64,000 nt of DNA, taken from positions 8,383 to 72,382 of the forward strand of contig LBWB01000007.1 in assembly GCA_000993405.1 (NCBI GenBank). The letters are read 5' to 3'. The translations under genes were made by a program, and so were the position numbers. The notes under the pieces were generated by a model. That model had not been told where the DNA came from. It did no database searches and saw only the letters and a program-made list of their open reading frames with translations. Shown here in pieces: positions 27,024 through 57,364 of this stretch; the first letter of the stretch is position 1; each line of letters begins with the position of its first letter. The DNA is from Candidatus Woesebacteria bacterium GW2011_GWB1_39_12 (GTDB lineage: Bacteria > Patescibacteriota > Microgenomatia > UBA8517).

Positions 27024-27068
<45 letters not shown>

Positions 27069-27630: not shown

Positions 27631-27662
<32 letters not shown>

Positions 27663-33295: not shown

Positions 33296-34192
33296 ATGAA
33301 AAATAAGTTTTTCAAACAAGGTGTGATTACTGCTCTTCTTTTGCTCACTTCAGTTTTTTTGGGAAGAATTTTCGGTTACGAAGCTTTTGCCGAAAGTTCA
33401 GTAACTCCGCCAAGCTTTCCGACATGTTCAGAGAAGATATTTGTTGCTGATGGTGATTGGGCTCATTATGATTCCGGGATCCATGGGATCCCTGGGGTAG
33501 GTAACTTCGAAGGAAGCGATGATGTTTATTCGTTGGGTTCTGGAAACTTTTTACAGTGTTTTTGTCCGGCCGGCGGGGGAGAGGGAACTCAAACTAACTG
33601 GTGGGATGTAGAGAATCTTAATCAAGAAGATATTAATTCATTCTTATCACAGAGTTGGTTTTTTGAATCAAGTGGTGATGGATGGAATTTATTAGACGAT
33701 CCATACCTAGTTAAGAATTCAAACTTTAGTTGTGCAGTACCTACCCCGACACCTCCGCCTTCAGGTGGTGGGGGTGGTGGTTCGCCTGGAGCACCTGTTT
33801 GTAATGCACCCGCAGTTACAAAAGCACCTCTTTATTCGAGTGCGAATTTATCAAGAATCGATAGCGATAGTATTAAAATAAGCTGGATAGTAACAGATGA
33901 TCGTGCTCAAAGGTACGGTATTTACTATGGTACGAATTCGGATAAACTTTCTTGGTATACCGAAGTTAAAGGACACGATACAAATGAGGCAATAATTAAT
34001 TTAGTACCCCAGGGTAATATATTTTTTAAGGTTTGTAGTATTGGAGAATGTGGAGATCAGGTGTGTGGGAGTGATATTCCTACAGTTCTGGGGGTGGCCA
34101 AAGGATTACCAGCTACAGGAACCATTGCACTTACTATTTTAGTCTTTGCACCAATTGGATATTATTTATATAGGCGCTTCAGGTTAGTATAA
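33296..34192 (+). CDS. LPXTG-anchored cell-surface protein
   Basis: Signal peptide, Gly/Pro linker (PTPTPPPSGGGGGGSPGAP), and a C-terminal LPATG sorting motif followed by a hydrophobic stretch and RRFRLV. Confidence 0.7.
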   Translation: MKNKFFKQGVITALLLLTSVFLGRIFGYEAFAESSVTPPSFPTCSEKIFVADGDWAHYDSGIHGIPGVGNFEGSDDVYSLGSGNFLQCFCPAGGGEGTQTNWWDVENLNQEDINSFLSQSWFFESSGDGWNLLDDPYLVKNSNFSCAVPTPTPPPSGGGGGGSPGAPVCNAPAVTKAPLYSSANLSRIDSDSIKISWIVTDDRAQRYGIYYGTNSDKLSWYTEVKGHDTNEAIINLVPQGNIFFKVCSIGECGDQVCGSDIPTVLGVAKGLPATGTIALTILVFAPIGYYLYRRFRLV

Positions 34193-34268
34193 AGATATTA
34201 GGATATTAGGAAAAGTTTTGCTAATTACTTAATATCTTAATATCATAATCACTTGATATCCTCAAAAT

Positions 34269-35009
34269 ATGCACCCTAAAGGAATAATTTATCAAAACGG
34301 ACGTTCAGGTACACATGGTGAAATAATTCTGTTTTTACCTGTCATTGCCCGTTTGGTCTTTCATTTCATTCGTGGCTTAGGAGCGGGTCTGATTGCCTTT
34401 TCTTTTTTAACCTTTGCTTTTTCATTCGGACCGGTTATTCAGCAGGAGATATCATACAATCTTGAAAAAACCGGTCTGAAGACGCAGGAGGAGTCAGTTA
34501 ATGAAGGTTTTTCTTTAAGTATTGCAGAAGCGGATAGAATTCTGGCGGTACAGAAAGAAGCGCAAAGCTATGAAGTTAATTCCTATTTTTCCGTTGTTAT
34601 TCCCACAATTGATGCTAAAGCTAATGTAATTGCAAATGTAGATGTGTCAAATAAATCGGATTATCTTGAGGCGTTAAAGAAGGGGATCGCTCATGCGAAA
34701 GGCACTTACTTTCCGGGACAGGGCGGAAGAATATTTCTTTTTTCCCATTCAACGGATTCTCCTTTAAACTTTGCCCGCTACAATGCAATTTTTTATCTTT
34801 TAAAGAAACTTGAAAAAGGTGACACAATTATTGTCTTTTTTGCAGACAAAAAATATGAATACGAGATTGTCGACAAAATCATTGCTGATGCCGGTGATAC
34901 GTCTTGGCTAATGCCCAAGAAAGAGGGAGAGGAATTGATACTCATGACCTGTGATCCGCCGGGTACTACATGGAACAGACTTTTGGTTGTCGCGAAGCCA
35001 AAGGCATGA
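34269..35009 (+). CDS. Sortase-family transpeptidase
   Basis: N-terminal TM and the catalytic LMTC motif (EGEELILMTCDPPG) near the C-terminus. It is adjacent to its putative LPXTG substrate. Confidence 0.65.
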   Translation: MHPKGIIYQNGRSGTHGEIILFLPVIARLVFHFIRGLGAGLIAFSFLTFAFSFGPVIQQEISYNLEKTGLKTQEESVNEGFSLSIAEADRILAVQKEAQSYEVNSYFSVVIPTIDAKANVIANVDVSNKSDYLEALKKGIAHAKGTYFPGQGGRIFLFSHSTDSPLNFARYNAIFYLLKKLEKGDTIIVFFADKKYEYEIVDKIIADAGDTSWLMPKKEGEELILMTCDPPGTTWNRLLVVAKPKA

Positions 35010-35171: not shown

Positions 35172-36485
35172 ATGCCTATAAAGAAGAAAGATAAAGATCC
35201 CGGTTTAGATTTACCTCAGAAGGAAACTATTTCGGCAGCAACGTTTACCCAACCACCAGCTTTTACCAGAGAACCTCAAAGATCTTTGGTTGTTGACGAC
35301 CGAGTACTTCCTGATTCAGGTTTACCTACCGAATTTGTTGAGGGAGTTTTGGATATTGCCCAAGAAGGATCGGGTCTTTTACGTCCCAATTTTCATCCCT
35401 CTGATCATGATATTTATATTTCCGCAAGCCAAATAAGAAGATTTAATTTAAGAATTGGAGATGTTATTGGAGGTCAGGCCAGGCACCCCAAAGAAAACGA
35501 GCGCTACTGGGGACTTTTGAAAGTGGAGAATGTAAACGGAGATCCTGCTGAAGAGCTTTTTCAAAGGCCATCTTTTGACGATTTGCTTGCAGTATATCCT
35601 AATGAACATATCGTTCTCTCTACAGAGAAGGAAGTATTGACCACACGAATAATTGATCTTATTGCACCAATTGGATTTGGACAAAGGGGTTTAATTGTTT
35701 CTCCGCCAAAAGCAGGTAAAACCTGGCTAATCAAAGATATTATTGCCGGAATTGCCAAGAATTATATAGTAGGTAAGAAACAAGGGGCGAAAGCTAAAAG
35801 GAAAACAGAGGTACATTTAATGGCCGTACTTATTGGAGAACGTCCGGAAGAAGTAACCGACATAGTAAGACACATGAAGGAAGTTACTGGCGGTCAAGGC
35901 GAGGTTGCTGCTAGTAATTTTGACGAACAAGCAGACGCACAAACTGCTGTGGGAGAACTTGCTCTCGAGAGGGCTAAAAGACTGGTCGAGAAAGGATATG
36001 ATGTTGTTATTGTTCTTGACTCCATAACCAGAATGGCGCGGGCTTATAACTTAGCTCTTCCAACCTCGGGTAGGACTCTATCTGGTGGTTTTGACCCTGC
36101 CGCGCTTTTTCCTGCTAAGAAATTTTTTGGCGCAGCGAGAAAAATTGAGGATAACGGTTCTCTAACAATTATTGGTACGTGCCTTGTTGATACAGGATCC
36201 CGAATGGATGATCTCATCTATGAAGAGTTTAAAGGTACCGGTAATATGGAATTGCATTTGGACAGAAGACTTGCCGATAAAAGGATTTTCCCGGCAATTA
36301 ATGTCACAAGAAGCGGTACAAGACAAGAAGAACTTCTCTACGGCAAAGATGCTTTGCAGCAAATTTATACTTTAAGACGAATGCTTGATATGGTTTCTGA
36401 AGATGAAAGAACAGAGACGCTTCTGGAAAGGCTTAAAAAGTCTGAATCAAATGCGGACTTTTTAGAAAGCCTCAAAACTGCTTAG
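35172..36485 (+). CDS. rho: Transcription termination factor Rho
   Basis: RNA-binding CSD-like region (RFNLRIGDVIGGQAR), Walker A GQRGLIVSPPKAGKT, and the Rho Q/R loops. Confidence 0.85.
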   Translation: MPIKKKDKDPGLDLPQKETISAATFTQPPAFTREPQRSLVVDDRVLPDSGLPTEFVEGVLDIAQEGSGLLRPNFHPSDHDIYISASQIRRFNLRIGDVIGGQARHPKENERYWGLLKVENVNGDPAEELFQRPSFDDLLAVYPNEHIVLSTEKEVLTTRIIDLIAPIGFGQRGLIVSPPKAGKTWLIKDIIAGIAKNYIVGKKQGAKAKRKTEVHLMAVLIGERPEEVTDIVRHMKEVTGGQGEVAASNFDEQADAQTAVGELALERAKRLVEKGYDVVIVLDSITRMARAYNLALPTSGRTLSGGFDPAALFPAKKFFGAARKIEDNGSLTIIGTCLVDTGSRMDDLIYEEFKGTGNMELHLDRRLADKRIFPAINVTRSGTRQEELLYGKDALQQIYTLRRMLDMVSEDERTETLLERLKKSESNADFLESLKTA

Positions 36486-36681
36486 TCTCAGGTACCTTCC
36501 ATTATAGTAATTGGGTACAAAAAGTTCACTTCGCCATTATTTGACCCCGCACGAAGTTAGCATGAATATGCTCCCAAATTTTTATTCAACTTTAATTAAT
36601 GCTTGATTAAATATTTCGAGTCTGACTTCACTTAAACTCAAACTCGGATATTTAAAAATTAGATGCCCATTTGGTGCTGGG

Positions 36682-37947
36682 TTGACCCACAACTCTTCAT
36701 GTGTTATCTTCTTGAGTGTCACTCAATTTTTGGCTATGTTGAAACTACCCTTCAAATTGAAAGTGCGTAAGGCTTTGAAAGAAAAGGAACCATACTCAAA
36801 CGGCCTCTCTGATTCTCAGGCTAAAGAGTACAGAATTCTGACCTTTTTTGAGGACGTATTACCCAGATTAAACGAAATCTTCTCTGAATTTAAGAATTTT
36901 GCCTTCGAACTTACGAATTATCTTGCAAGAATTCTTCACCTGTCTTTTTTAAGGTTTGAAATGGGCAAGAGTTTATTTGCTGCTATTTTGTACCGACAGC
37001 GGGGTAAGTATGCTAAAAGATTTGTTCACTCGGGAATGGCAGGCCTCGCTGCTTTGGGAGTAATGATTGCACCAGTTATTGCAAAGGAATTTCCGGGGAG
37101 AACTTTGGATCCGTGGGATATTCCGTCTCCATCATCGGTACTTTCGGCATCTGTTGAGGAAACAGGGATCTCAACAGATATATCTTCAAAACCCAGAGAT
37201 AAAATTATTGAATACGAAGTGCAAGAAGGAGATACTGTTTCGGGGGTTGCCGATAAGTTTGCTGTCTCGCAGGATACGATTCTTTGGCAAAATGATTTAT
37301 CAGCGAGAGACCGAATAAAACCGGGTCAGACTTTGGAAATCTTGCCGGTATCGGGAATTTCACATAAGGTCGCTAAAGGCGACACAGTATATTCCATTGC
37401 CAAAAAGTATGATTCTTCACCTCAGGCAGTTGTGGACTTTCCTTTTAATACATTTGTTAACGATGAAACCTTTGAACTCGCAATAGGTCAATCGATAATT
37501 GTTCCGGACGGTATTAAGCCGGAGGAGAGACCTACTGCACCTCGTACCAGGAGAATTACTCCGGATGCAGGTACCGTTGTTGCATCAGGCGCTTTTGTCT
37601 GGCCTGCTAGCGGAACAATTTCACAAAACTTTGTTTGGTATCACAAGGGGATTGATATCGCAAATCGAGCCGCTCCGGATATACTGGCTGCGGATGCCGG
37701 AACTGTTATAACTGCCGGGTGGCCGGATAATTATGGGTACGGTAATAGGGTAGTAATAGATCACGGTAACGGCTATAGAACTCTATACGGTCATCTATCA
37801 AGAATATATGTTACTCCCGGGCAAACTGTGGTAAGAGGCGCAGCGGTTGGTAAAATGGGGTCAACTGGTCGTTCTACAGGCATTCACCTTCATTTTGAAG
37901 TTACCAAGGAAGGTGCATATCTAAACCCGCTCAGCGTGCTACGTTAA
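36682..37947 (+). CDS. LysM-domain M23 family metallopeptidase
   Basis: Two LysM motifs (YEVQEGDTVSGVADKF; HKVAKGDTVYSIAKKY) and the M23 motifs HxxxD (IDHGNGYRTLYGH) and HLHFEV. Confidence 0.8.
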   Translation: MTHNSSCVIFLSVTQFLAMLKLPFKLKVRKALKEKEPYSNGLSDSQAKEYRILTFFEDVLPRLNEIFSEFKNFAFELTNYLARILHLSFLRFEMGKSLFAAILYRQRGKYAKRFVHSGMAGLAALGVMIAPVIAKEFPGRTLDPWDIPSPSSVLSASVEETGISTDISSKPRDKIIEYEVQEGDTVSGVADKFAVSQDTILWQNDLSARDRIKPGQTLEILPVSGISHKVAKGDTVYSIAKKYDSSPQAVVDFPFNTFVNDETFELAIGQSIIVPDGIKPEERPTAPRTRRITPDAGTVVASGAFVWPASGTISQNFVWYHKGIDIANRAAPDILAADAGTVITAGWPDNYGYGNRVVIDHGNGYRTLYGHLSRIYVTPGQTVVRGAAVGKMGSTGRSTGIHLHFEVTKEGAYLNPLSVLR

Positions 37948-38046
37948 TTTTCAATATCAATTTTTTAATTTTAATTCAATTGATAATTATTTAATTAGTT
38001 AATTCATTGAAAATTAGTAATTAAAAATTTAAAATTAAGATGTTTT

Positions 38047-38108
38047 AGGGCCGTTAGTATAGTCCCGCCAGAGGCGGGCAGGGGTAATGTAAACCCTTAC
38101 GAATATTC
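38047..38108 (+). other. tRNA-like fragment (GGGCCGTTAGTATAGT...) immediately upstream of tRNA-Ala
   Basis: It shares its first 6 nt (GGGCCG) with the downstream tRNA and contains the hairpins cccgccagaggcggg and gggtaatgtaaaccc. No complete cloverleaf could be drawn. Confidence 0.3.
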
Positions 38109-38180
38109 GGGCCGATAGGTAAACGGTATACCGTACCCTTCGCATGGGTAAGTTCTGGGTTCAATTCCCAGCCGGTCCAC
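38109..38180 (+). tRNA. tRNA-Ala (anticodon CGC)
   Basis: Acceptor GGGCCGA/CCGGTCC with G3:U70, D-arm GGTA-AACGGTA-TACC, anticodon stem TACCC/GGGTA with loop TTCGCAT, T-arm CTGGGTTCAATTCCCAG. Confidence 0.65.
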
Positions 38181-38239
38181 AAAACAGTTTCGTCCAGAGG
38201 ACGATCAATCTTTGGCTGGCGATTCTGCACGGTCCACTT

Positions 38240-38842
38240 TTAGGGAATGGGCGAGATGATTTTGGGTGGAGAGAAGACAATAATTAGAAGAGTAATCAAG
38301 GCGATAAGAGCAATAGTTATAGAAATTGTGACAAGTCCAAATCTTTCATTCGATAGAAGAAAAATTGGTTTTTTAGTTACCTCAGGATTTGTCGATGGTT
38401 CAAGAATTGACGGGTGAGAGAGGGGTGGTGTTGAAATAGAGTCAATATTTGTTGAAAGAGTAAGGAGCTTATCATATTTAGAAGGTCTTTGAACTGTAAA
38501 ATAACGGGGCACTATCAGTTTAGACTTTTCTTCCAGGGGTCGATCGATCTCCGACTTAATCTGATCCGTAACTGTGGCCGTGTCTGCTATTTCTATTTTT
38601 GTAGTTTTTTCATCCGACTTACTTTTAAGATCTACTTTTGCTAATTCATCTCTTTCATATTTACTCCCAAAAAGATTGTCCAGATCTTCCTTCTTAAAAT
38701 ATCTATGACCTCCCGGGGATCTATATACTTCAACTTTTTCTCTTTTTTCCCAACGACGTAACGTGTCTATGGAAATTCCTAGATAGTTTGAAGCCTCTCC
38801 AATACTAAGTAATTTTTTTGCTAAATCTGCCCTTACTTTCAT
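38240..38842 (-). CDS. MerR/excisionase-type HTH DNA-binding protein with a C-terminal membrane anchor
   Basis: LLSIGEASNYLGISIDTLRRWEKREKV forms an HTH_17-type helix-turn-helix. The C-terminal hydrophobic helix reads LVTISITIALIALITLLIIVF. Confidence 0.55.
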   Translation of the reverse strand: MKVRADLAKKLLSIGEASNYLGISIDTLRRWEKREKVEVYRSPGGHRYFKKEDLDNLFGSKYERDELAKVDLKSKSDEKTTKIEIADTATVTDQIKSEIDRPLEEKSKLIVPRYFTVQRPSKYDKLLTLSTNIDSISTPPLSHPSILEPSTNPEVTKKPIFLLSNERFGLVTISITIALIALITLLIIVFSPPKIISPIP

Positions 38843-38960
38843 TTGAGGGTATTGTTTAGAATTTGCATAGATTTGTCAAGTGTTTAAGTGATAAGTCAAT
38901 ATTCCAAATAGCGGGAAGATATCACTTAATGACTGGAGGATTATTCAATCTGTCAAGAAA

Positions 38961-39722
38961 TTATGACAGGCCGGACTTATGTCTTTTTCTTTCGGAAATA
39001 CGATTTAAAAGCAACGTAAATTCAAAAAGTAAAATGAGTGGCAAAGAAAGAAATATATCAGCAATGATTGAGTCGGGAGGAAGAAGAAGGGCAAAGATAA
39101 AAGAACCTAGATAAATCCAGAGGCGCTTTTTACTTAAGGCGTGATGCTTGATGACTCCGATACGCAGAAGAAGTAATAAGACGATAGGAAATTGGAAACC
39201 AATTCCCATAAAAGCCGATGTTAGAAAGACGGTTGTTAAAAGGCCGCTGATATCTAAAATGTTGCCGATACCCAAAGAGATTGACCTGGCTAAAAAAATC
39301 TCGATTTGCCATTTCATGATGACCGCTCCAAGGGAGAACCCCATTAAAAAAAGAAAGATAGAGAAAGGCACGAAGCTAACCACTGTTTTAAACTCTTTTT
39401 TTCTAAGCGCTGGTTTTAAAAAATGCAAAACTTGAAGAATAAAGAGAGGTAGAGCTATAACAAGCCCTGTAACAATACCACAGCTTATGGCAAGGTTGAT
39501 AAACTGGAAAGGTGAGGTAAAGACAATATTAATGCCTTCGAGTGAAAGGGCGCCAATAAAGAATCTAATTATATCTTCATAAAAAGCAAAACCAATTAGT
39601 GTTGAAGCTGCGAAAATTGAAAGCGTAAAAAAGATTCTTTTTCTGACTTCCCTAAAGTAATGTGAATATTTGTTTGTTATTGCAGTTAACTCAGAAGATT
39701 TGAAAGATTTGATATTTTCCAC
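38961..39722 (-). CDS. tatC: Twin-arginine translocase subunit TatC
   Basis: Six predicted TM helices; N-terminal ...HLEELRKR-like region (HYFREVRKRIFF). Confidence 0.7.
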   Translation of the reverse strand: MENIKSFKSSELTAITNKYSHYFREVRKRIFFTLSIFAASTLIGFAFYEDIIRFFIGALSLEGINIVFTSPFQFINLAISCGIVTGLVIALPLFILQVLHFLKPALRKKEFKTVVSFVPFSIFLFLMGFSLGAVIMKWQIEIFLARSISLGIGNILDISGLLTTVFLTSAFMGIGFQFPIVLLLLLRIGVIKHHALSKKRLWIYLGSFIFALLLPPDSIIADIFLSLPLILLFEFTLLLNRISERKRHKSGLS

Positions 39723-39742
39723 GGCAGTAGCGCTCTAATAAA

Positions 39743-39911
39743 TTTAACCTTCAACATTTTTTTCTTGTTCATTATCTTTTGAAGCTTTTTTAAATTCTTT
39801 GACTGCGTCTGCCAAACCTTTAAAAAGTTCCGGGATTTTCTTGCCTCCGAAGAGCAAAATGACTACGGCTGCGATAATAAGTAGTTCAGTAGTTCCTAGT
39901 GATCGAAACAT
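39743..39911 (-). CDS. tatA: Twin-arginine translocase subunit TatA/E; shorter than 60 aa and absent from the ORF track
   Basis: My own translation gives [55 protein letters not shown], a TM helix followed by FGxKKxPE. Coordinates are within about 2 nt. Confidence 0.6.
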
Positions 39912-39917
39912 TTTCTA

Positions 39918-40121
39918 TTATGTCACCTCCTCATTTTTTTTACTTGGTTGATCGTCTTCAATAGCTTCGGTAAAGTTCTTTTTTATTTTTTTGATCTCTT
40001 TGAGACTTTGCCCTGCAGTTCTACCAAACGAGATAAATGCTTTTGCACCAAAAAGTAATATCAAAATTGAAACAAGAATAATTATCTCTGTCGTACTGAT
40101 ATTTTTAAGAAAGCCTGGCAT
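39918..40121 (-). CDS. Second TatA/E-like protein
   Basis: IIILVSILILLFGAKAFISFGRTAGQSLKEIKK has TatA-like topology. Confidence 0.55.
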   Translation of the reverse strand: MPGFLKNISTTEIIILVSILILLFGAKAFISFGRTAGQSLKEIKKIKKNFTEAIEDDQPSKKNEEVT

Positions 40122-40179
40122 CTAATTAATTAGACTATATTACTTGGGGGAATAAAAAACAATAGGTAAAAATGAACAA

Positions 40180-40380
40180 CTATACTTCTGTCATTGACGC
40201 TGCCAGCCAAAAGGATCCGTTATAATATTCCAGACTGTTTGTTTGTGAGTTAAAGCCGATTGTTCCGCGCTTGGGTTTTTTCGGCCTAGCGTCTGTTTCC
40301 CAGGAGCTAATTCTTGGTAAACCAAGCATTAGTGATAAACCTTGGCCTATGTCCATTAAAACTGTGGATTTACTTTCCAT
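40180..40380 (-). CDS. Small protein consisting of the conserved C-terminal module shared with the giant repeat protein
   Basis: ISSWETDARPKKPKRGTIGFNSQTNSLEYYNGSFWL aligns with [36 protein letters not shown] at the end of the 40594..44532 protein. Confidence 0.5.
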   Translation of the reverse strand: MESKSTVLMDIGQGLSLMLGLPRISSWETDARPKKPKRGTIGFNSQTNSLEYYNGSFWLAASMTEV

Positions 40381-40593
40381 CTTGTTGAAATCATTATATC
40401 GATCAAAGTAACTTACATCAAGTGTTAAGGAACCAACTATACTTGCTTTTCTTTAGGTGGTTTAGGTAAAACTTGTAAGGTGTTCACTTGCAAGGTTTAA
40501 GAACAATATTTAAGCATGAAATACCTTGCAAGTTTTGCAATTGAAGACCGATCCTTACAAGATAAGTGAGTTTGAAACTACTACTTGCAAGGA

Positions 40594-43500
40594 TTATATT
40601 TTTTTCATTGGTAGAGTCAGCCAGCTAGATCCGTTCCAAACTTCAATATTATTTGTTTGAAGATTAAATCCAAACGTTCCTGTTTTTGGGTTTTTAGGTC
40701 TGCCTGAGATATTCCAAGAGGGGATTCGTTTCTGGATATTAGACACCGTTGCACCCAAAACCTTTTTATTGTTTGTATTAAAAATCGTATGGTTTCTGAA
40801 AAGAATAGGCGGTTCTGGAATAGGAGCAACATAAGCTTCCGATGGACTTACCGAAGGTGAGACGCTAAAACTTGCTGAGTATATGATAGCAGGAGAAGGG
40901 GAAGGAGATGCAGAGGGGCCGCTTGGGGCCACGGAGGGACTAGCTGATGGTGAAAGAGAAGCTGAACCACTTTCTCCACCTAGAGAAGGACTGGCAGACG
41001 GTGATAATGATCCGGAAGGACTCCCGCTGGCTGACGGACTAAGAGACAGAGATGGGGAGACCGAAGCGCTGATGCTTTCTGACGGTGAGAAAGAGGCCGA
41101 TGGTGAAAGAGAGGCGGATGGTGAAACCGAAGGACTTCCTGATCCAGAAGGACTAAATGAGGCACTTGGTGAAATAGATGCCGACGGCGAGACAGAAGGG
41201 CTAAGGCTTGCTGATGGACTCAAGGAAGCCGAGGGTGATAATGATGCCGACGGCGAGACAGACGGCGAGGCAGATGCACTGGGTGAAAGAGAGGGAGAGA
41301 CGGATGCAGAAGGAGAAATTGACGCACTTCCGGCTTGTGAAGGGCTTACCGATGCGCTGGGAGAAATTGACGGTGACACTGACGCAGACGGACTAACCGA
41401 TGCACTGGGAGAAACAGAAGGAGAAACACTGGCCGATGGCGATTCCGATGGACTTACACTTGCTGATGGAGAAAGAGATGCCGATGGGCTAACAGAAGCA
41501 CTTGGACTAACCGACGGAGAAACTGAAGCAGACGGGCTGACACTAGGACTGATGCTTGCGCTCGGACTGACAGATGCAGACGGACTGGCGCTTGCGCTTG
41601 GAGAGACCGAAGCACTTGGTGAGAGTGAAGCGGACGGTGACATACTTGCTGATGGTGAGACAGAGGCGGATGGACTAATGGATGCACTTGGACTAAGCGA
41701 TGGCGATACGGATGCAGAAGGAGAAACAGAAGGCGATTCCGATGCCGACGGACTCAAACTAACCGAGGGAGAAAGAGAAGGAGAAACAGAAGCTGATGGT
41801 GATACCGATGGACTGAGACTTGCAGAAGGTGAGACTGATTCTGAAGGTGATACCGATGCTGACGGACTTACTGATGCACTAGGCGAGACAGATGCAGACG
41901 GACTCAAAGATGCCGAAGGTGATACTGATGCCGATGGCGATACAGATGCACTAGGACTGACTGATGGAGACACAGAGGCTGAGGGTGAAACGGAAGGACT
42001 TACACTTGCAGATGGGCTAACAGATTCACTCGGACTGACAGAAGCCGACGGAGAAATAGACGCAGACGGCGAGACCGAGGCCGATGGAGAAAGTGATGCC
42101 GATGGTGAAACGGAGGCAGAAGGTGAAAGAGACGCAGACGGGCTAACAGATAGTGAAACCGACGCGCTTTCTGCTTGAGAGGGACTCACAGATGCGCTGG
42201 GGCTGATACTCGCAGACGGCGAGATGGATGCGCTGGGTGACACTGATGCCGACGGGCTAAGCGATGCAGAAGGTGATAAAGATGCTGATGGACTGATGCT
42301 AGCGGAAGGACTAAGTGACGCAGAGGGGGAAACTGATGGAGAAACAGAAGCAGATGGAGACACTGATGGACTTTCACTTGCAGATGGAGAGAGTGATGCC
42401 GATGGTGACACCGAAGCAGAAGGACTAACACTTGCCGAAGGACTGACAGATGCGCTAGGTGAAAGAGAACCTGAGGGGCTGGCACTTGCAGACGGCGAGA
42501 CCGATGCAGATGGACTAATCGATGCACTTGGACTAACCGACGGAGAAATAGATGCTGATGGTGACACCGATGGACTAAGACTGGCAGAAGGAGAGACTGA
42601 TTCAGATGGCGATACTGATGCGGAGGGAGAAACACTGGCTGATGGGCTAAGAGATGCACTAGGCGAGACAGATGCAGACGGGCTAACTGATTCACTTGGT
42701 GACACAGAGGCTGATGGAGAAAGGGATGCACTTGGACTTAAAGAGGGAGAAACAGATGCCGATGGGCTGACAGAAGGCGATTCCGATGCCGACGGACTTA
42801 AAGAGGCCGAAGGGCTGACAGAAGCCGATGGAGATACGGATGCAGATGGAGAAAGACTAGCAGATGGAGACACTGATGCAGATGGACTGACACTTGCCGA
42901 CGGGCTGACTGATTCACTAGGCGAAACTGAAGCTGATGGACTAACAGACCCGCTGGGACTTAGAGAAGGAGAAATAGAGGCAGACGGTGAGACTGATGGA
43001 CTTTCACTCGCAGAAGGACTCAAAGAAGCCGATGGAGAAACTGAGGCAGAAGGCGAAACAGAAGCTGATGGGCTAAGACTCGCAGAAGGACTGACACTTG
43101 CAGATGGGCTAACTGATTCACTTGGTGACACCGACGCAGATGGACTCAAACTTGCAGAAGGACTGAGAGATGGAGAAACAGATGCACTTGGCGAGACAGA
43201 AGGACTCTCACTAGCTGATGGAGAGAGTGAGGCTGATGGTGATACTGATGCGCTAGGCGAGACAGACTCCGACGGTGAAAGAGAAGCAGAAGGAGAAACT
43301 GAAGGGCTAATAGATGCCGATGGTGAAAAAGAAGGTGACTCCGATGCCGACGGACTTAAAGAGGCCGAAGGGCTGACCGATGCCGATGGGCTTACCGAAG
43401 CAGATGGACTAAGGCTAGCGGATGGACTAACCGATGCACTAGGTGATATCGATGCAGACGGACTTAGACTTGCAGAAGGACTGACAGATGGAGACATCGA

Positions 43501-44532
43501 GGCAGAAGGTGAAACAGAAGGACTTTCACTGGCAGATGGGGAGAGTGAGGCAGAAGGAGAGACAGAAGCTGATGGTGACACTGATGCGCTAGGCGAGACA
43601 GACTCCGACGGTGAAAGAGAAGCACTAGGGCTTACTGATGGCGAAATAGAAGCAGATGGAGATATAGAAGGACTTTCACTAGCAGAAGGAGAGAGTGAGG
43701 CAGAAGGACTGAGAGATGCAGATGGACTTAAAGAAGCTGATGGACTGACAGAGGCCGATGGTGACAAAGAAGCACTGGGTGATACCGATTCCGATGGCGA
43801 TACCGAAGCGCTAGGTGATAGTGATGCTGAGGGAGAAAGCGACGCGCTGGGACTCAAAGATGCAGATGGGGAAATACTGGCAGATCCTTGCACCGGTTTA
43901 AGCGCGATGACAACTTCAACAAGTGGGCCGGCAGAGCTACTGCGTACCCAAGATATACTTTGGTTAGCAGGGGGAGTCACGGGTATTGTACTCATTCCCG
44001 AGAAGGTTGTTGCACCTGCAACCGTTACTCGCTCTGTTTGGCCTGCTGTTGCAGTAGAAGTGAGTGTTCCTCCTGTACTGGCCTTCGCGATCATGGCGTC
44101 AACAACCCATGCGTTATCTGTGATTGTTTGCAAGCTGACCGGGGTTGCCGAAGAAGTAGCAGGATTTATAGCTAAAAATGTACTTGCTTCCGGCGCTTGC
44201 TGTGCCACACCGCTTAAGGCGATTGCTCCGACTGAAGTCTCGGTATTAGTATCTGTACTTGCAAAAGTTGCCTGGACGGTGTATGTACCGGTACCAGGCA
44301 ACTGGGCAGACAGCATATAGAAAATGCCGGCGGCATTTACTCCGGCAGCGTTATTGGCACTTTCGGCCGAAGTCATTGCTACACCGTTGAAATTTATGCC
44401 AGTTGGAGGGTTAAAGCCTGCCGCATAGGCAACCACCATATCGTACGCGGAGCCAATCGTGATATCTACACTCGGGCTGGCTGAAGCAGAGGCTGCTGCT
44501 ATTCCTGCCGCTGCGACGAATGCAATTGCCAT
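40594..44532 (-). CDS. Giant (1312 aa) secreted or surface protein made of about 150 tandem SPSAS[VLIE] hexapeptide repeats, with distinct N- and C-terminal domains
   Basis: Continuous minus-strand ORF with a signal-like N-terminus ([18 protein letters not shown]), a non-repetitive domain of about 200 aa, an 18-nt periodic repeat core, and a unique C-terminal module. The plus-strand ORFs are mirror artefacts. Confidence 0.75.
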
Positions 44533-44533
44533 T

Positions 44534-45700
44534 TTAGCGCCCTCCTCCCGCTAAACGGATACTTAGCTTGAGAGAATCTACATAGTATTGATTTTCTTCT
44601 ATTGCTCCAACAATATGTAAAAGCAGCATATTCTTATTCATAAGCTGGGCAACCATATTTCCGAACTCGGTTAACGCCCTTTGGCGTTTTTTGGATCCTT
44701 TCTTTAGGTTTAATAATTTCTTAAGATGTATGTTAATTTGTGCATTCAGGTTAAATGCCTCTGATTGAACTTCTATATATTGCTTTTTAAATGAAAACCG
44801 TGCACCATCAAATTCCCCCACTGAAAATACAGATGCTCCGGCCGTTCCTTCCATTGCGCGGGCCTTCTCCAAGTATCTTTGACTCTCTCTGATCCTTCCA
44901 TTAAGAATTCCGGCTTGTTCACTTCTTTTGTTGAGTTCGTTTAGCTCCTTTTGAATTTCAACACTTGTATCAGCCTTTAAAAGACCAGACAGACTTTCCA
45001 GAAAGATTTTTGCTTCTTGGTTGTAGCGATCCTTATCGTCACCCAGTTCGGTAGTTAATTCGGCAATCCTTTTCTCGATCTTGGTTGTAGGTAATGCCAC
45101 ATCTCCTTCGTAGCCGTACATTGGGGAATCAAAAATTGAATTGTAAAGAATTATTTTTACTCCGAGTGCGGTAAGGTAACCGATCCAAAAGCCGAAACCA
45201 GTTAACTGGTATCGGTATTCGCTTTCCGTCTCCAACTCAATCCCGTGAATCTCAACGCGCTCATAGCGTTTCCCTTGTTTCCACATGTCAGCAACCAGCG
45301 CAAATGCATAGTCCGGTGAAGAACTAAAAAATTTAAAGTTTTTTTCTTCCCCCTTAACGACCACACTGACGTTTTCGGAAAGTGAGAGCACACGCTCAAT
45401 AGGGTATTTTTTTGATTTCGGGATATCAGTGTAGTGCTTTTGCATGTAAACAGTTGGTGTTATACCGGATTTAAGCCAAAGGTAATGCTCTTCGTCGCTT
45501 CTATTTTTTGGATTTTTCCAAATTGCCTCATGGTGCAATTGGAAGACTGTATCGCACTTTGGATATTTCAGTTCGCCATTTTCTTTCTTTGCATTTGGGG
45601 CTTCATTAAACATCCAGATATCGCAGTCGGTTCTTGACCAGTCGAACGTTTTCAATCCGTTCGGGTGCGTACCCATTATTACGAGCGTTTTTTTCATCAC
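44534..45700 (-). CDS. Hypothetical protein in an operon with the giant repeat protein; C-terminal coiled coil
   Basis: 388-aa ORF that overlaps the GIY-YIG gene in ATGA fashion and ends 2 nt before the start of the repeat protein. Confidence 0.5.
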
Positions 45701-45978
45701 GTTAGAAATAGAAAACGTTTCATACGGTTTTTAAGATATCTTCTACCCATTCCAGTCTTGAGGTATTTTTCTCGAGCAACCCCGTCTAATTTATTTTTAC
45801 ATCCTTCAAAATAGATTATTTCGAATGGTCCTCGGCCTTTGGTGTATCTGGACAATCCTTTCTGATGTTCCTGTAAACGTTTTCGAAGATTGTTAGTGCA
45901 ACCAATATACCACTTTCCAGATCTAGTACCTCTTAAAACATAAACATATTGATAATTGAAATTTCTAACGTGATTCAT
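45697..45978 (-). CDS. GIY-YIG nuclease-domain small protein; second copy in the window
   Basis: YVYVLRGTRSGKWYIGCTNNLRKRLQEHQKG. Confidence 0.65.
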   Translation of the reverse strand: MNHVRNFNYQYVYVLRGTRSGKWYIGCTNNLRKRLQEHQKGLSRYTKGRGPFEIIYFEGCKNKLDGVAREKYLKTGMGRRYLKNRMKRFLFLT

Positions 45979-46129: not shown

Positions 46130-47878
46130 GTGAAGATTCCTGCAATTCTCCTATTGGTTTTTGTCCTTTTTATTTCTTCCTTTCCAATATTTTCAAGAAG
46201 TGCGACGGGTCAGGAAGGCGGGCCTGTCATTTCTGATATCAGCGTTTCTACTTCGGGAGACTCTGCAACAATAACATGGACAACCGACGTACCAGCCGAG
46301 TCTGACGTTGACTGGGGAACAAATCCAGATGACAATGATTTTACAACTGGAAATGACCATACATTTGTTACTTCTCACTCAGTTACAATATCATCCCTTT
46401 TACCCAGTACGGTATACTACATTAAAATATTCAATAGGAATGAAGCTGGTTATGAGACAATTTCTGATATCCAATCCTTTACGAGCGCCAGTCAAAATCC
46501 TACGGCTACCGAGGCACCGGCTACAAGTACTACCACCACTACCACCGCTTCTACTACGACTACAACGACAAAAAAGGTTGTTGATACCACGGCGCCCAGT
46601 CTTTCTTTAACAACCAACCTTTCTCACCCGTACGTTAAAGCACCGATTCTTACCGGGTCTGCCACTGATGAGATTGATGTAAGCTCTGTTGAGTACTCAA
46701 CCGATGGGGGAGCGAATTGGATTGCTGCAAGTCTTGAAGGAAAGGGTACGAAAAGCGCGACATTTAATTTTTCTTTGGGGGTTTTGGATGATGGAAATTA
46801 TCCTTTTCAGATCCGTGCCAAAGATTCTGCTGGCAACACTTCGGAAACGAAATCCTATACCCTTATTATTGACAGACTTCCGCCTCAGGTTGGCGGGGTT
46901 GTCTTTTCATTAGGTCCCCAGACATTTGCCCCAACCAAAGACGGGACACTTGTAACCGTCGCAGGATTGGAACAAAAACTCACTCTTTCCGCAATTGGCG
47001 GTCCGACTTCGTTAGAAGTTTCGGCGGGTGACAATAAATTTAGTTTGACCAAAAATATTGAGAGCGGTTTATGGTCAGGACTAATTAAATTCGACAGTCC
47101 TGGGGTATATGATCTGACGACAAAATCTATAGACGGAGCCAAAAATGAGACCGACCAGGTCCTCGTTAAGATAGAAGTTTTGCAAGCAGGATCGGTTTCG
47201 TACTCAGGAAAGTCAATTAATGGGGCTGAGGTTTTAGTCTATATTTTTGAGCCCACATTAGGTGAGTTTATTGTCTGGGATGGCGCTTCCTATAGCCAGT
47301 CTAACCCACAAAAAACCGGTGAAAACGGTAACTATAGCCTTCTTTTACCTTTCGGAAAGTATTATCTTGAGGTTAAAATTTCCAGAATAATTAAATTGAG
47401 AAGTCAAATTTTTGAAATTACCAACCCATCTGTTATTAATGCCGACTTTGAAAGCGGTACATTATCTCTACCCTTCATAACTAAAGAAGTTAAAGTCACC
47501 CCAACAAAGGGCTTTACTGAAGTACCTATTGAGAACGGACTTGTTGGCCGCGACTTTCCATTTGAACTTGTCGAATCGGCCAAGGGAAAGCGTCTTATAA
47601 GCTTTGTGGCTACTTGGCTCCCCGATACTGCCCAACAAATTCAAATGTTAGAGGTAGTGGCTGACGATACCAAAAATATCGTTATTGTTCCTCAGGAATC
47701 AGCGGCAACTGTTGAAATCTACCGCAAGAGGGGAGGCTACACCCTGGAAATGTTTTCCGATCCTGATGGGAAGCTTGTTGAACCACTTAGGTTACGTTTT
47801 CTCCCTGTCCATTTTTTCTTAGATGAAGGTGGTAAGATTAGTAAAATAAAATACGGGATATTAAGTTTAGAGCAATGA
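46130..47878 (+). CDS. Secreted fibronectin-type-III / Ig-like repeat protein with a poly-Thr linker
   Basis: Signal peptide, an Fn3-like segment (ATITWTTDVPAESDVDWG...YYIKIF) and a TTTTTTASTTTTTT linker. Confidence 0.6.
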   Translation: MKIPAILLLVFVLFISSFPIFSRSATGQEGGPVISDISVSTSGDSATITWTTDVPAESDVDWGTNPDDNDFTTGNDHTFVTSHSVTISSLLPSTVYYIKIFNRNEAGYETISDIQSFTSASQNPTATEAPATSTTTTTTASTTTTTTKKVVDTTAPSLSLTTNLSHPYVKAPILTGSATDEIDVSSVEYSTDGGANWIAASLEGKGTKSATFNFSLGVLDDGNYPFQIRAKDSAGNTSETKSYTLIIDRLPPQVGGVVFSLGPQTFAPTKDGTLVTVAGLEQKLTLSAIGGPTSLEVSAGDNKFSLTKNIESGLWSGLIKFDSPGVYDLTTKSIDGAKNETDQVLVKIEVLQAGSVSYSGKSINGAEVLVYIFEPTLGEFIVWDGASYSQSNPQKTGENGNYSLLLPFGKYYLEVKISRIIKLRSQIFEITNPSVINADFESGTLSLPFITKEVKVTPTKGFTEVPIENGLVGRDFPFELVESAKGKRLISFVATWLPDTAQQIQMLEVVADDTKNIVIVPQESAATVEIYRKRGGYTLEMFSDPDGKLVEPLRLRFLPVHFFLDEGGKISKIKYGILSLEQ

Positions 47879-53729: not shown

Positions 53730-55592
53730 TTAATTAACTCTTTTGTCTTTCCCCAGCCAAGTCAGACTTGGCCAGCCGGGGATATCCGAATCGCTTTCAA
53801 TCCAGCCTTTGAGAAGATTCTGGTTTCGAAATTCGCCTTTCTTCCACCTTTGACCGGTAACATTGCCTGTGTGGCGGATATCTATGTTGGGATATTTGGA
53901 TTTCCAGGTTCCCAGCTTAAACACGTTTTTCCATTTGATCCGATTATGGGTCATCGGCTCAAAACCCATTTTGCGGCTGAAACCTTCTTTTTGAATCAGT
54001 TCGTAGCGTTCTCGGAAATGGGTTAAAAGTTCCTCGCGATATCCGCAAAGGCCGGAAAGCTGATTAACGTCATAATGAAGCGCATGACCGTCGGTAGTTC
54101 TTAAGAACCAGACATTCTGATTATAGTAAAAAGTATTTTTATCCTGCGGAGTAAAGTCAAAATGGGTAGGGTGATAGAGAACATCGTGTTCACAAAAGAA
54201 GATGATATCAGCGGTACTATGTTCTAAAGCAGCCACAATTTGTTTAAACATTGCAGGATAGCCTTTTTTTAAAGAAGGAAAGTGGATGTTTTTAACGCCA
54301 AAATCCATTTTCTTGAGAGTTGCACTGACAATCGGGACACTTTTTTCCTGACTGATCTTGAGAAGCTGATCCCGAACAGGCTTAGCAATTTTTTCATCAA
54401 GTGTACAATCGCTGTAATAGATCATTCCCTTGTTTGGTAAATCACTCTCTACTTCGCTGACTACTGGTTCGGGAGCTTCGGGTAGGGCGGCATAATCCCC
54501 AGCAAAATATATGATACCTTCAATTGGACCATTCTTATTAGGTTCACTTTCAGCAGGATTAATAATTATTTCTTTCGATGAAAATCTGAAAGTATTTGCC
54601 TTTAGTTTTTTTAGGTCTTCCTCAGTCCAGCCCTTGACCGGCCAGAATTTTTCGACTAACCACGAAAGGGGACGCACCTGTTGAGGCCAGTTGTTATTAA
54701 AGAAAAGATTGCGGGCATAAGATTTGGCTTTTTCCTGATCCCTTCCTGAAATTGGGTAGGGGAAGCCAAAATCACCGCCTTGAGTGCGAAACATATGGGC
54801 ATACCAAGTTTTTTTGTTTACCATAACACTTCCTCCGGAGAGCCATGTTTTTACAGCAACTTCAATTCCCTGTGAACCCCAACTACCAAAATTCTCGTCA
54901 CAAACACCAAGTTCCCAATATTTGTTTCGTGTCAGCATCCAGCATGAACCCTGAAGAGACATGGTTTCGGTTATTTCACCTTGCCCTTCAGGACGCTTGG
55001 TCCAATCACCGAAATACTGGAAGTGGGGTTCAGAGTCGAAACAATAAGAAACGCTGTTAGGACTTTTCTTAGGTTGCCAGAGAATGTCCCTGACCGTTTC
55101 TTTTCCGCAATCCCGACATGGGCCGCTTGGTCCCTGGTACCTGTGGTGACCGTCAGGACAAATCCAGTCAAAAGCGTGAAGATTTTTCATCAAGGGAGCC
55201 ATCGTCCAATCGTCGTGCATCTCCTTCATCATTTTTATGTCAAACCCCTTATCAAATGCACAATGTGCATCACACTTCATCAAATATTTTGCCTTTGACA
55301 GTTTAGCCGCCTGATTGGTTGCTGCCCGCTGTCCTATTGACTCGGGGTTATAAATTACTGTTACTCGCTCATGCTGGGGGATGGGAGGATCTGTCCAGTA
55401 GCCGTCCATAACTGCAATAATTTCGGTATTGCCTTCGATATTATTTAGGATATCTTCTATTGTTCTTGCCAGGAACATTTCGTTTCTGGCTGGTATGAGA
55501 ATACTTAAATCGTAATTTGCCCCGTTAGAAATCCGACCCACCTTTGGTGTTTCGGCATTAATTTCAACTGTATTTCTAACGGGGTTTGCCAT
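53730..55592 (-). CDS. Two-domain glycosyltransferase-like protein: an N-terminal GT-A domain with a DxH (CDAHC) motif plus a C-terminal domain related to the 58499 and 59273 paralogues
   Basis: The N-terminus (LSILIPARNE...IAVMDGYW...CDAHCAF) is paralogous to 55675..56550. The C-terminal ADIIFFCEHDVLYHPTHF matches EADFLYPPEYF and DDDTLYVAEHF in the 235-aa paralogues. Confidence 0.5.
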   Translation of the reverse strand: MANPVRNTVEINAETPKVGRISNGANYDLSILIPARNEMFLARTIEDILNNIEGNTEIIAVMDGYWTDPPIPQHERVTVIYNPESIGQRAATNQAAKLSKAKYLMKCDAHCAFDKGFDIKMMKEMHDDWTMAPLMKNLHAFDWICPDGHHRYQGPSGPCRDCGKETVRDILWQPKKSPNSVSYCFDSEPHFQYFGDWTKRPEGQGEITETMSLQGSCWMLTRNKYWELGVCDENFGSWGSQGIEVAVKTWLSGGSVMVNKKTWYAHMFRTQGGDFGFPYPISGRDQEKAKSYARNLFFNNNWPQQVRPLSWLVEKFWPVKGWTEEDLKKLKANTFRFSSKEIIINPAESEPNKNGPIEGIIYFAGDYAALPEAPEPVVSEVESDLPNKGMIYYSDCTLDEKIAKPVRDQLLKISQEKSVPIVSATLKKMDFGVKNIHFPSLKKGYPAMFKQIVAALEHSTADIIFFCEHDVLYHPTHFDFTPQDKNTFYYNQNVWFLRTTDGHALHYDVNQLSGLCGYREELLTHFRERYELIQKEGFSRKMGFEPMTHNRIKWKNVFKLGTWKSKYPNIDIRHTGNVTGQRWKKGEFRNQNLLKGWIESDSDIPGWPSLTWLGKDKRVN

Positions 55593-55674
55593 AAAGATAA
55601 ATTATAGGATTTTCATAAAATTCTAACTTGTAAGGTAATACCTTGCAAGTATATTAGACCTGATAACATAAATA

Positions 55675-56550
55675 CTATAAGCTGTTCTTTTCGCCGACCC
55701 AGGTAGGAACCGGCCAAAATCTCTTGACTAGCCAGGAAAGGGGAAGCGTTTGTTTATGCCAACCCTTATTTTTCCACTTATCAACCGCTGCCAGTGCCTT
55801 TGGTTGGTCATCCCTACTCAAACTATATCCTCGTCCATAGTCGCTACTTTTGTGCCAGTGAGCATACCAAGTATTCTTATTGACCACAACACGCCCTCCC
55901 GATAGCCAGCACTTTAAGCCAATTTCCTGAAATTCATTCCAAAAAGTTCCATAAGTTTTTTCGTCCATAAGCTCAAGCTCATTGAAGTAGTCGTGAGTCA
56001 TAAACCAGACACTTCCTTGATTACTCATGGTTTCATCAATTAATTTCTTCTTAAGTTCAGGATCTTTGTTCTTTTCATTCCAGACGACTCCGTGCAGGTC
56101 CTGAGATAAATACATATAGTCAATGGGATACTTTGGATTGTCAACCAACTCCCATTTTTCAGGGTCCAGTGCATATCTTCTGGGGACGACAACCCAGTTA
56201 TCCGAACAGTCTGCGGCTAATACTGTATCAAATCCATTAGCAAACATACAATGTGCATCAGTTTTCATTAAAAATTTGCCTTTTGCGATGACAGCTCCTG
56301 CATTGATTGCTGCTCGCATTCCAAGGGGTTTTCCGCGGTGAATAATTTTTAGGCGGGTATCTTCAATTAATTGGGGAGTAGGCCAGTAACCGTCGAGGAT
56401 AACGATGACTTCAATATCTCCTTCGGCTTTTGTCAATAAGTCAGTAACGGTTTTTTGAAGAAACAACTCATTTCGGGCGGGGACGATTACACTTAAATCA
56501 CAAGTTGCCATAACACACCCATATTTAGCGTAAATTGAAGTAAAAAGCAA
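55675..56550 (-). CDS. GT-A fold glycosyltransferase (GT2/GT27-like) with a ppGalNAc-T-like DAHC motif
   Basis: LSVIVPARNE, VILDGYW and KTDAHCMF. Confidence 0.5.
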   Translation of the reverse strand: MLFTSIYAKYGCVMATCDLSVIVPARNELFLQKTVTDLLTKAEGDIEVIVILDGYWPTPQLIEDTRLKIIHRGKPLGMRAAINAGAVIAKGKFLMKTDAHCMFANGFDTVLAADCSDNWVVVPRRYALDPEKWELVDNPKYPIDYMYLSQDLHGVVWNEKNKDPELKKKLIDETMSNQGSVWFMTHDYFNELELMDEKTYGTFWNEFQEIGLKCWLSGGRVVVNKNTWYAHWHKSSDYGRGYSLSRDDQPKALAAVDKWKNKGWHKQTLPLSWLVKRFWPVPTWVGEKNSL

Positions 56551-56564
56551 CCTATAGAAAAAGT

Positions 56565-57144: not shown

Positions 57145-57364
57145 ATATTCTTAAGTATATGATGGTAATATACATTTGTCAAGAGATCAAATGAATTATT
57201 TTCTTCAGTATTTAGCGTAAATTGAATTAAAAAACAACAAAGAAGTTGCACACGAGGCAATTCTATTTTTTGACAAAATACCAGCAGGGTTGTCTATCGT
57301 CTCTTGAGACAGCGTCCCAATCTTGCTCAGTTGTGTATAAGCGGTAGTCTTTTTTCTTTTAATA

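Follow-up and report, generated by a model that had tools for sequence, protein, structure and literature searches.

A conserved gene cassette of Microgenomates-type bacteria that combines a giant serine-rich protein, a putative glycosyltransferase and Tat genes

Serine-rich repeat proteins (SRRPs) of Gram-positive bacteria combine (Ser-x)n stalks with glycosylation in the cytoplasm and a dedicated exporter. In Bacillus subtilis, phoD-tatAd-tatCd is an operon in which genes of the twin-arginine translocation (Tat) system are linked to a substrate gene. Tat-dependent surface filaments, namely tafi and bundling pili, have been described in haloarchaea (PMC11821415, PMC12337348), and Maf glycosylates flagellin before export (PMC4065374). 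Here we analyse a locus that can be compared with each of these systems. It lies in a stretch of 64,000 nt (hereafter, the window; positions 8,383 to 72,382 of contig LBWB01000007.1) from Candidatus Woesebacteria bacterium GW2011_GWB1_39_12, a member of the candidate phyla radiation (CPR), and is centered on an open reading frame (ORF) for a serine-rich protein of 1312 residues, the giant protein. The reading that we favour, with a probability of roughly one half, is that the locus represents a lineage-wide cassette of Microgenomates-type CPR bacteria making a very long, modular, O-glycosylated surface fibre devoid of a signal peptide, with Tat as the leading candidate for its export.

The likeness to SRRPs (GspB, Fap1, PsrP and SraP, with their GtfA/B and accessory Sec proteins) begins with the very long (Ser-x)n stalk, x being A, V, E, I or L. 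It extends to the globular, non-repeat N-terminal domains of ligand type, to the point that two relatives (L002 and L008) even follow the order short repeat, second domain, long repeat, and to the adjacent glycosyltransferase genes; glycosylation would be expected to occur in the cytoplasm before export by a dedicated, co-encoded exporter. However, the giant protein has no KxYKxGKxW-type or other signal peptide, and instead of an LPXTG/sortase anchor it ends in a beta module resembling phage fibres, of which a free paralogue is also encoded. SecA2/SecY2/Asp and GtfA/GtfB genes are replaced by those for a GT42/Maf-like enzyme, GT2 glycosyltransferases and TatA-TatA-TatC; neither SecA/SecY nor a GT4 pair was found in Pfam scans of the neighbours or in the annotation of L036, an independently assembled contig. 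Furthermore, proline recurs every 4-6 residues along the stalk of the giant protein, and the host is a CPR bacterium. By analogy, the cassette would work like an SRRP system but is not one, every defining SRRP feature except the stalk being absent.

The cassette and its giant serine-rich protein

A first-pass annotation of this DNA had described four minus-strand ORFs, encoding proteins of 66, 1312, 388 and 93 residues (the last with a GIY-YIG domain), and all four were found (Table 1). It had missed, however, the continuation into tatA-tatA-tatC, and the locus is not a single operon but a lineage-wide, mostly unannotated cassette. The conserved block opens with a glycosyltransferase/methyltransferase island, continues with a glycosyltransferase-like gene adjoining the giant ORF and with the giant ORF itself, and closes with a gene for a small protein, two tatA genes and tatC. 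In the window, the stop codon of the gene for the 388-residue protein is 1 nt away from the ATG of the giant ORF.

We saw this cassette at about 30 loci, comprising L002, L004, L007-L009 and 26 loci from GTDB species genomes that were retrieved with an alignment of the small proteins and span six candidate phyla (Woese-, Levy-, Roizman-, Davies- and Collierbacteria, and WWE3). All relatives with a reliable taxon name belong to Microgenomates or WWE3. Where complete, their giant ORFs encode some 980-2323 residues, of which 30-46% are serine. The genes beyond tatC vary (MerR, nitroreductase, thioredoxin reductase, AbiEii and Fic), as do those upstream of the island; since the flanks vary while the block persists, the block is conserved beyond the background gene order. 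In the window, a MerR-family gene is found directly downstream of tatC. At three loci (L015, 3-9984; L024, 2-9876; L011, 1-10101) at least two giant serine-rich genes stand in tandem and have a C-terminal module each, and some of these arrays appear to be broken by frameshifts or stops.

The stalk of the window protein attested to a strict periodicity. Its 175 SPS motifs occur in units that include 133 SPSxSx hexapeptides and 34 SPSx tetrapeptides, so the array first described as about 150 SPSASx hexapeptides is real, with a different count. Serine does stand at every other position: 482 consecutive serines out of 501 keep one odd/even phase, and 493 of the 509 in-phase positions are occupied by serine. 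Overall, the stalk is 49% Ser and 17.5% Pro, is devoid of Thr, Lys, Arg and Asp, and has P, A, V, L, E or I between the serines. The near-perfect 18-nt periodicity proposed earlier applies to the protein and not to the DNA, which is degenerate: identity at lag 18 is 0.52, the units reported by Tandem Repeats Finder are 65-88% similar to one another, exact repeats reach at most 45 nt, and every 18-mer is present no more than twice. Each serine position of the repeat unit uses all six Ser codons, of both the TCN and the AGY families, implying that the constraint acts on the amino acid in the sense frame.

This degeneracy speaks against the array being an assembly expansion or prone to slippage, and a slippage-prone microsatellite was rejected on the same ground. 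The suggested length polymorphism through repeat number therefore does not extend to easy slippage, but the lengths do differ between lineages, over the range given above for complete ORFs. The repeat block is indeed GC-rich (0.52-0.54, as compared to about 0.40 in the surroundings). Ser, Pro and Ala codons account for the difference; horizontal transfer was hence rejected as its source.

Contig L036, from an independent JGI assembly, is 100% identical to the window over positions 36117-42552, which take in half of the giant gene, and thus reproduces exactly about 1.7 kb of the stalk, the part of the array for which it answers the concern about assembly expansion. Many other contigs of the same population end inside the array or at its border. 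Two antisense ORFs, of 431 and 698 residues, overlie the stalk in the window, and in L001, L002, L004, L007-L009, L045 and L046 the public annotation places antisense ORFs rich in G, E, D and T on the stalk and leaves the sense ORF uncalled. It is because gene callers report these antisense ORFs that the giant family is scarce in protein databases. The sense frame is the real gene: it is the only unbroken frame, joins head and tail, has the orientation of the operon and is constrained at the amino-acid level.

The head domain, previously described as unique, is without a match in Pfam, PHROG and NCBIfam and has three database homologues, one of which is a truncated copy of the same gene; the antisense gene calls account for this low number. 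Heads of this type (MAIAFV... or MAISLV...) also occur in L002, L004, L014 and L045, each time with a homologue of the 388-residue protein directly upstream, whereas other head types are preceded by glycosyltransferase-like paralogues of 205-213 residues or by a GT2 enzyme of 588 residues. Across lineages the heads are of many unrelated types, most of them unnamed and two with Pfam names, LamG/Laminin_G_3 (in L015) and Gly_rich_2.

The N-terminus of the giant protein, which had been taken as signal-like, is Ala-rich and without a charged n-region. Orthologous heads begin MAISLVGSTSLTATS or MAIAFVRAAISSAVSDS, other heads begin MSRFYLTNDAAG and similar, and orthologous and non-orthologous heads alike open with polar beta-strand sequence. 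No signal peptide was found in some 20 complete giant N-termini read from their sequences, and none of the orthologues has a Sec signal peptide. The ORF could not be extended upstream, because only 6 codons lie between the preceding stop and the ATG. Judging from sequence, the N-terminus would be the first strand of the head domain and not a Sec signal. We saw no membrane anchor in the giant protein either.

The C-terminal end is conserved in all giants (about 30): over roughly the last 60 residues they are homologous to the small protein, and this module, of about 45-60 residues, is the only conserved globular part among proteins with differing heads. The screen of relatives thus bore out the shared C-terminal motif, and its recurrence as a stand-alone ORF was evident from the alignment of the giant tail with the 66-residue protein, in which W, RPK, GT.GFN.QT, E, G and W are invariant. 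The small protein has 316 homologues, nearly all of 58-70 residues, and its AlphaFold2 model (predicted local distance difference test, pLDDT, 81) is all-beta, with six short strands. Against DUF7360 (PF24059), it scored 25.0 bits and the giant C-terminus 18.7 bits, both below the gathering cut-off of 27.6; some homologues of the small protein carry a precomputed PF24059.2 label. The module is best called, on these scores, a borderline DUF7360 relative.

Other matches of the module were to phages. The giant C-terminus matches phrog_1325 (E=1.6e-7), and both giant tail and small protein match several PHROG families of unknown function. By tblastn, the motif was found in minor tail proteins of Streptomyces phages, inside the baseplate/fibre block, and in structural-region proteins of cyanomyoviruses. 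Foldseek searches of the small protein against viral models (BFVD) returned cyanophage 'tail fiber-like', 'glycine-rich domain', 'sericin-like' and collagen-associated proteins. With the DUF7360-type phage proteins (exemplified by the Streptomyces Camvirus minor tail, cyanomyovirus T4-GC_349, 'glycine-rich domain' and 'sericin-like' proteins) the cassette shares a 40-residue motif, W..RP...G..GFN..T...E...G..W, a predicted three-stranded sheet and the linkage of the module both with fibrous or low-complexity stretches and with heads of Gly_rich_2 or LamG type. In the phage proteins, however, the module is N-terminal or internal, in chains of 300-400 residues, whereas here it is C-terminal on chains of about 1000-2300 residues and is accompanied by the 66-residue gene; moreover, the cassette is chromosomal, adjacent to Tat and without virion genes.

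Because of these matches, obtained with PHROG, tblastn and Foldseek, to phage proteins of the minor tail and tail-fibre-like kinds, the module would seem to be a base or oligomerisation element of fibres. Of the roles first suggested for it, anchoring or assembly is thus favoured, also by its conservation in about 30 giants, whereas a tip that binds a receptor is more plausibly sought in the variable N-terminal head. The giant protein ends in ...WLTLPMKKI, with neither an LPXTG motif nor a transmembrane segment in its C-terminus. Anchoring through the nearby sortase was rejected, as LPXTG is absent; so was an S-layer protein (an S-layer stalk had been another suggestion), given that there is no Sec signal and that no SLH or other S-layer or wall-binding Pfam domain was detected in any part of the protein.

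The order module - small protein - tatA - tatA - tatC was kept in nearly all loci. When we started from the other end and searched metagenome contigs with a TatC alignment, 64 loci had 800 nt or more of upstream sequence. The module was upstream of tatA-tatA in 59 of them, and 46 of these 59 showed both copies, one in the giant C-terminus and one in the small gene. Of the five exceptions, four (L092, L106, L108 and L109) carry in the slot upstream of tatA a different conserved protein of 170 residues, also devoid of a signal (Table 1). As in the substrate-linked operon of B. subtilis, the cargo gene would lie directly upstream of tatA-tatC, and the haloarchaeal systems offer a precedent for surface filaments with subunits exported by Tat. 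However, the cargos of those systems have an N-terminal twin-arginine signal, and none is found in the cassette, so that any recognition by Tat would be of a new kind.

The adjoining 388-residue protein and the glycosylation genes

The 388-residue protein of the window had no Pfam or NCBIfam match, PF01973 and PF06002 included. Its AlphaFold2 model (pLDDT 90) consists of an alpha/beta domain, approximately residues 1-200, followed by a long helical bundle (residues 205-384), and the N-terminal domain superposes on Maf (5mu5), an MptE-like protein (8sd5) and CstI (2p56). When a profile of distant family members was compared with PDB sequences, nine Campylobacter GT42 sialyltransferases were within the top ten, with E-values of 0.045-0.16. 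In these alignments SSvayalALAiykGyerIelYGie is matched to residues 131-158 of Cst-II (segment TSGVYMCAVAIALGYKEIYLSGID), with the common pattern SS..YA.ALA..GY..I.LYGI, and the N-terminal IVGshp...DiWvfNe to IIAGNGPS...DVFRCNQ. PF06002 (CST-I) was matched by one of 42 distant members (E 6.6e-4). A word-indexed search yielded 139 homologues of the protein, and an exhaustive profile search 2732 cluster representatives at E<=1e-3. It appears, from its modelled structure, to be a new and distant branch of the Maf/GT42 sialyltransferase-like fold, with a putative glycosyltransferase activity.

In common with Maf and with GT42 enzymes (Cst-I/Cst-II), the 388-residue protein would have the fold of the catalytic domain, to which a helical domain is added; like Maf, it would presumably act before export on serines of a secreted filament protein. 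Differences are the absence of a significant PF01973 or PF06002 match and of flagellin or flagellar genes nearby, the substrate, presumably a repeat stalk offering hundreds of sites, and the lack of a CMP-sugar (cytidine monophosphate-activated sugar) pathway in the window.

A glycosyltransferase-like gene adjoins the giant gene in every complete locus that we examined, encoding either a homologue of the 388-residue protein, one of the 205-213-residue paralogues (L007, L009) or the 588-residue GT2 (L008, L010). In relatives, glycosyltransferase/methyltransferase islands are directly upstream of the giant gene. The genes of the window's island are 38-72% identical to those of the relatives' islands (tblastn), the highest values including a 620-residue GT2 with 65-72% identity to genes in L008, L010, L032 and L034. 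A CTP_transf_3 cytidylyltransferase gene was found at most three genes from the 388-residue homologue in L004 and L046, and in L004 it stands beside a gene for an NAD-dependent epimerase/dehydratase of the Polysacc_synt_2 type; homologues of PseB-type dehydratases, DegT aminotransferases and Asn-synthases were not found in the window. The extended, O-glycosylated surface fibre that the first-pass annotation had envisaged draws support from this context, namely the adjoining Maf/GT42-like gene and the islands of the relatives, although both glycosylation and surface location are at this stage predictions from sequence.

Of the full-length homologues of the 388-residue protein that we checked, the most distant, 35% identical, is encoded in a phage contig (L044; JGI Ga0310129_0001881, 1-13575), with capsid/connector genes on one side and a GT2 gene on the other. 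Upstream are genes for an MptE-like protein (PF01973), a radical SAM/SPASM protein and methyltransferases, a layout that suggests phage-encoded glycosylation of the virion by means of this enzyme family.

Proposed mechanism and alternative explanations

According to the reading that we favour, the giant protein, lacking a signal peptide, would be made in the cytoplasm, where its stalk serines would be O-glycosylated by soluble glycosyltransferases encoded by neighbouring genes, in the window by the abutting 388-residue protein. Because this enzyme is a distant structural relative of Maf and GT42, its donor would most likely be a nonulosonic or ulosonic acid activated with CMP, and it may dock, by way of its C-terminal helical bundle, on the type of head that goes with it. 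Further sugars would be added or altered by the enzymes of the GT2/methyltransferase island. Once glycosylated and partly folded, the giant protein would exit by a non-Sec route, for which the adjacent Tat translocase is the leading candidate. The C-terminal module would oligomerise or dock, probably with its 66-residue paralogue, forming the cell-proximal base. The stalk would serve as an extended spacer, roughly 250-300 nm long (an estimate, at 0.25-0.3 nm per residue) and hence comparable to one CPR cell diameter, and the variable head would be the distal tip, binding a host cell, a surface or some other ligand. The complete mechanism, in which a dedicated TatA-TatA-TatC recognises the C-terminal module and the 66-residue paralogue and exports a signal-less, cytoplasmically glycosylated giant fibre whose swappable heads attach to hosts, is more than we would bet on, and we put it forward as a tentative and rather unlikely whole. 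The Tat step is its weakest link, because there is no twin-arginine leader.

Several observations weigh against the favoured reading, and some of them concern glycosylation. A profile of the close family of the 388-residue protein retrieved no glycosyltransferase among PDB sequences, just coiled-coil noise, and an hhalign comparison of the family with the MptE-like protein of L044 was negative. No gene for a CMP-sugar synthetase or for the nonulosonic-acid pathway was found in the 64-kb window, where, moreover, the island and the cassette lie some 8 kb apart, with sensor-kinase and other genes between them. Others concern export, and speak at the same time for a different explanation, in which the fibre is the same but the Tat genes are mere conserved neighbours. 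Export would then rely on an unrecognised C-terminal signal, on holin- or lysis-like release or on type IV pilus machinery, and the 66-residue protein would have no relation to Tat but act as a cap or in assembly. Indeed, a twin-arginine motif with a hydrophobic stretch was present in no giant or small protein of any locus, as judged by reading the N-termini by eye; in the window a 213-nt spacer with its own promoter-like site parts the giant gene from the small and tat genes; and the sampled TatC sequences are all close relatives (60-77% identical to that of the window), so that shared ancestry could explain part of the linkage. However, the block from giant to tatC persists while both flanks change, 59 of the 64 TatC loci carry the module, and the four clear lackers hold another signal-less protein in the same slot. 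We regard Tat as a bystander as a possibility to be taken seriously, if still an unlikely one.

Some of the phage matches could be read in another way, i.e., with the cassette as a domesticated or resident phage module and the giant as a tail-fibre or decoration protein of a virus or phage-like particle, and not part of an organelle on the cell surface, subject to phage-type glycosylation and assembled in the cytoplasm. Virion proteins normally have no signal peptide, Gly_rich_2 and LamG heads are found in phage fibre-like proteins, and the C-terminal module recurs in the tail and structural-region proteins mentioned above. The 388-residue homologue within the structural block of L044 likewise counts against our preferred reading, since parts of the cassette may be of viral origin and have another role. 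Yet in neither the window nor some 30 relatives was a capsid, portal, terminase, tail or integrase gene found close to the cassette, the neighbours being instead rRNA, Rho, M23 peptidase, Tat and sensor-kinase genes, the chromosomal slot beside tatAAC is fixed across several candidate phyla, and the domain order is reversed with respect to the phage proteins. A phage module is thus improbable, and a prophage proper was rejected, no phage structural family having been found in the flanking ORFs of the window or of relatives. Equally improbable, to our mind, is that the protein stays inside the cell as a cytoplasmic scaffold, glycan carrier or storage polymer, its serine array serving some other chemistry, e.g., phosphorylation. 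The lack of a signal peptide and of a membrane anchor, along with adjacent enzymes that all appear soluble, would agree with this, but a Ser/Pro-rich, charge-poor stalk, lectin-like heads (LamG, in L015) and a fibre-type base are typical of extracellular fibres, the rapid turnover of heads suggests outside partners, and Tat is adjacent. The least credible explanation by far is an artefact, with the array expanded during assembly or the antisense ORFs being the true genes. Contigs of the same population do break in the array and gene callers do favour the antisense ORFs; however, with so few and such short exact repeats the array can be placed by short reads, and L036 matches 1.7 kb of it. Besides, the sense frame is intact for 1312 codons joining conserved head and tail, while the antisense frames are fragmented and without unique domains, and arrays of this kind were assembled in some 30 genomes, among them a complete chromosome of 916 kb and a contig of 744 kb.

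Window context and significance

The features of the locus are collected in Table 1. The GIY-YIG gene, which overlaps the start of the 388-residue gene by 4 nt, had been counted as an operon member; it was not at this position in L002, L004, L014 and L045, and a similar ORF for 86 residues (L045, 349-609) occurs elsewhere in the island of the latter. Such small stand-alone GIY-YIG ORFs, found at differing places of the islands of two genomes, may be mobile or selfish elements.

Table 1. Features of the cassette. Positions refer to the window unless a contig is named.
Feature	Position	Strand	Remarks
GIY-YIG domain protein, 93 aa	45697-45978	-	PF01541, E=3e-14; variable/accessory neighbour, outside the conserved cassette
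Putative glycosyltransferase, 388 aa	44534-45700	-	AlphaFold2 model and distant-member profile matches
Giant protein ORF, 1312 aa	40594-44532	-	Head aa 1-214, stalk aa 215-1231, non-repeat tail aa 1232-1312
Giant head domain, aa 1-214	43891-44532	-	Beta-rich; no Pfam, PHROG or NCBIfam match
Giant stalk, aa 215-1231	40840-43890	-	(Ser-x)n array of SPSxSx and SPSx units
Giant C-terminal non-repeat region, aa 1232-1312	40597-40839	-	Stop codon 40594-40596
Conserved C-terminal module, aa 1270-1312	40597-40725	-	IPSW..GRPK.PK.GT.GFN.QTN..E.WNGS.WL..PMKKI
Spacer from giant to small gene, 213 nt	40381-40593		Three CTTGCAAG palindromes and a promoter-like site
Small all-beta protein, 66 aa	40180-40380	-	Paralogue of the giant's last ~60 residues; alignment, AlphaFold2 model
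tatA, 67 aa	39918-40121	-	Precomputed annotation of L036 (PF02416, PF00902 for the tat block)
Second tatA/B-like gene, 55 aa	39744-39911	-	
tatC, 253 aa	38961-39722	-	
Whole tat block	38961-40121	-	Same strand, directly 3' of the small gene
Glycosyltransferase/methyltransferase island	53730-63842	-	Three GT2, two Methyltransf_24, one Methyltransf_23, several unknowns (Pfam)
Slot protein of other TatC loci, 170 aa	L092 1124-1633; L106 993-1502; L108 3182-3691; L109 3144-3662		MAAKLTYD...DLYSDAKEDW...KDIKTKATLASLK

The spacer between giant and small genes, 213 nt in the window as compared to 5-62 nt in relatives, holds its CTTGCAAG palindromes at 40487, 40525 and 40584, in addition to one degenerate copy (region 40470-40591), and the promoter-like site at 40421-40393 on the minus strand. 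A further copy of the palindrome, at 55642-55649, is in the 82-nt gap upstream of the gene for the 620-residue GT2; altogether, five were observed in the window and 1.2 expected. The palindrome may be a shared operator tying the tat/small operon to the glycosylation island.

The window is a chromosomal region of a CPR bacterium. Besides tRNA genes and genes for Rho, an M23 peptidase, a sortase and sensor kinases, it carries 16S, 23S and 5S rRNA genes, the 23S with a group I intron. The rRNA genes (14853-27966) are unusual: some 7.3 kb with several ORFs lies between 16S and 23S, including an ORF for 750 residues on the minus strand (20245-22497); the 23S gene spans 4023 nt, and its intron is at 27196-27449. 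Between the cassette and the sensor-kinase genes, on the plus strand (46130-47878), is the gene for a secreted protein of 582 residues made up of an Fn3/purple-acid-phosphatase-N-like domain, a Thr-rich linker, Big_13 and a weak thioredoxin-like C-terminus. The sortase gene (34269-35009), 5 kb from the cassette and not linked to it in relatives, adjoins the gene for a 298-residue protein with a weak Fn3-like match (33296-35009 for the pair).

Our literature search found nothing on DUF7360 or on serine-rich proteins in CPR bacteria, nor, among the papers listed, one linking Tat to Patescibacteria, and the cassette looks like a fibre system not described before. The giant proteins are largely absent from protein databases owing to the antisense calls, and the 388-residue family, despite its more than 2700 cluster representatives and its members in phages, is unannotated.

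CPR bacteria are thought to live attached to other cells. To our knowledge, however, almost nothing has been established about their surface molecules apart from type IV pili. The cassette is widespread in Microgenomates and WWE3, and its giant protein ranks among the largest that these tiny genomes encode and has rapidly exchanged heads, as would be expected of an attachment or recognition organelle. Its tight linkage to Tat in the absence of a twin-arginine signal raises the question of how a folded or glycosylated cargo exits the cell. If Tat does export the giant protein, this would amount to a new mode of Tat targeting and to a CPR counterpart of the SRRP/accessory-Sec pathway; cell-length glycoprotein fibres with swappable heads would then mediate attachment to host cells.

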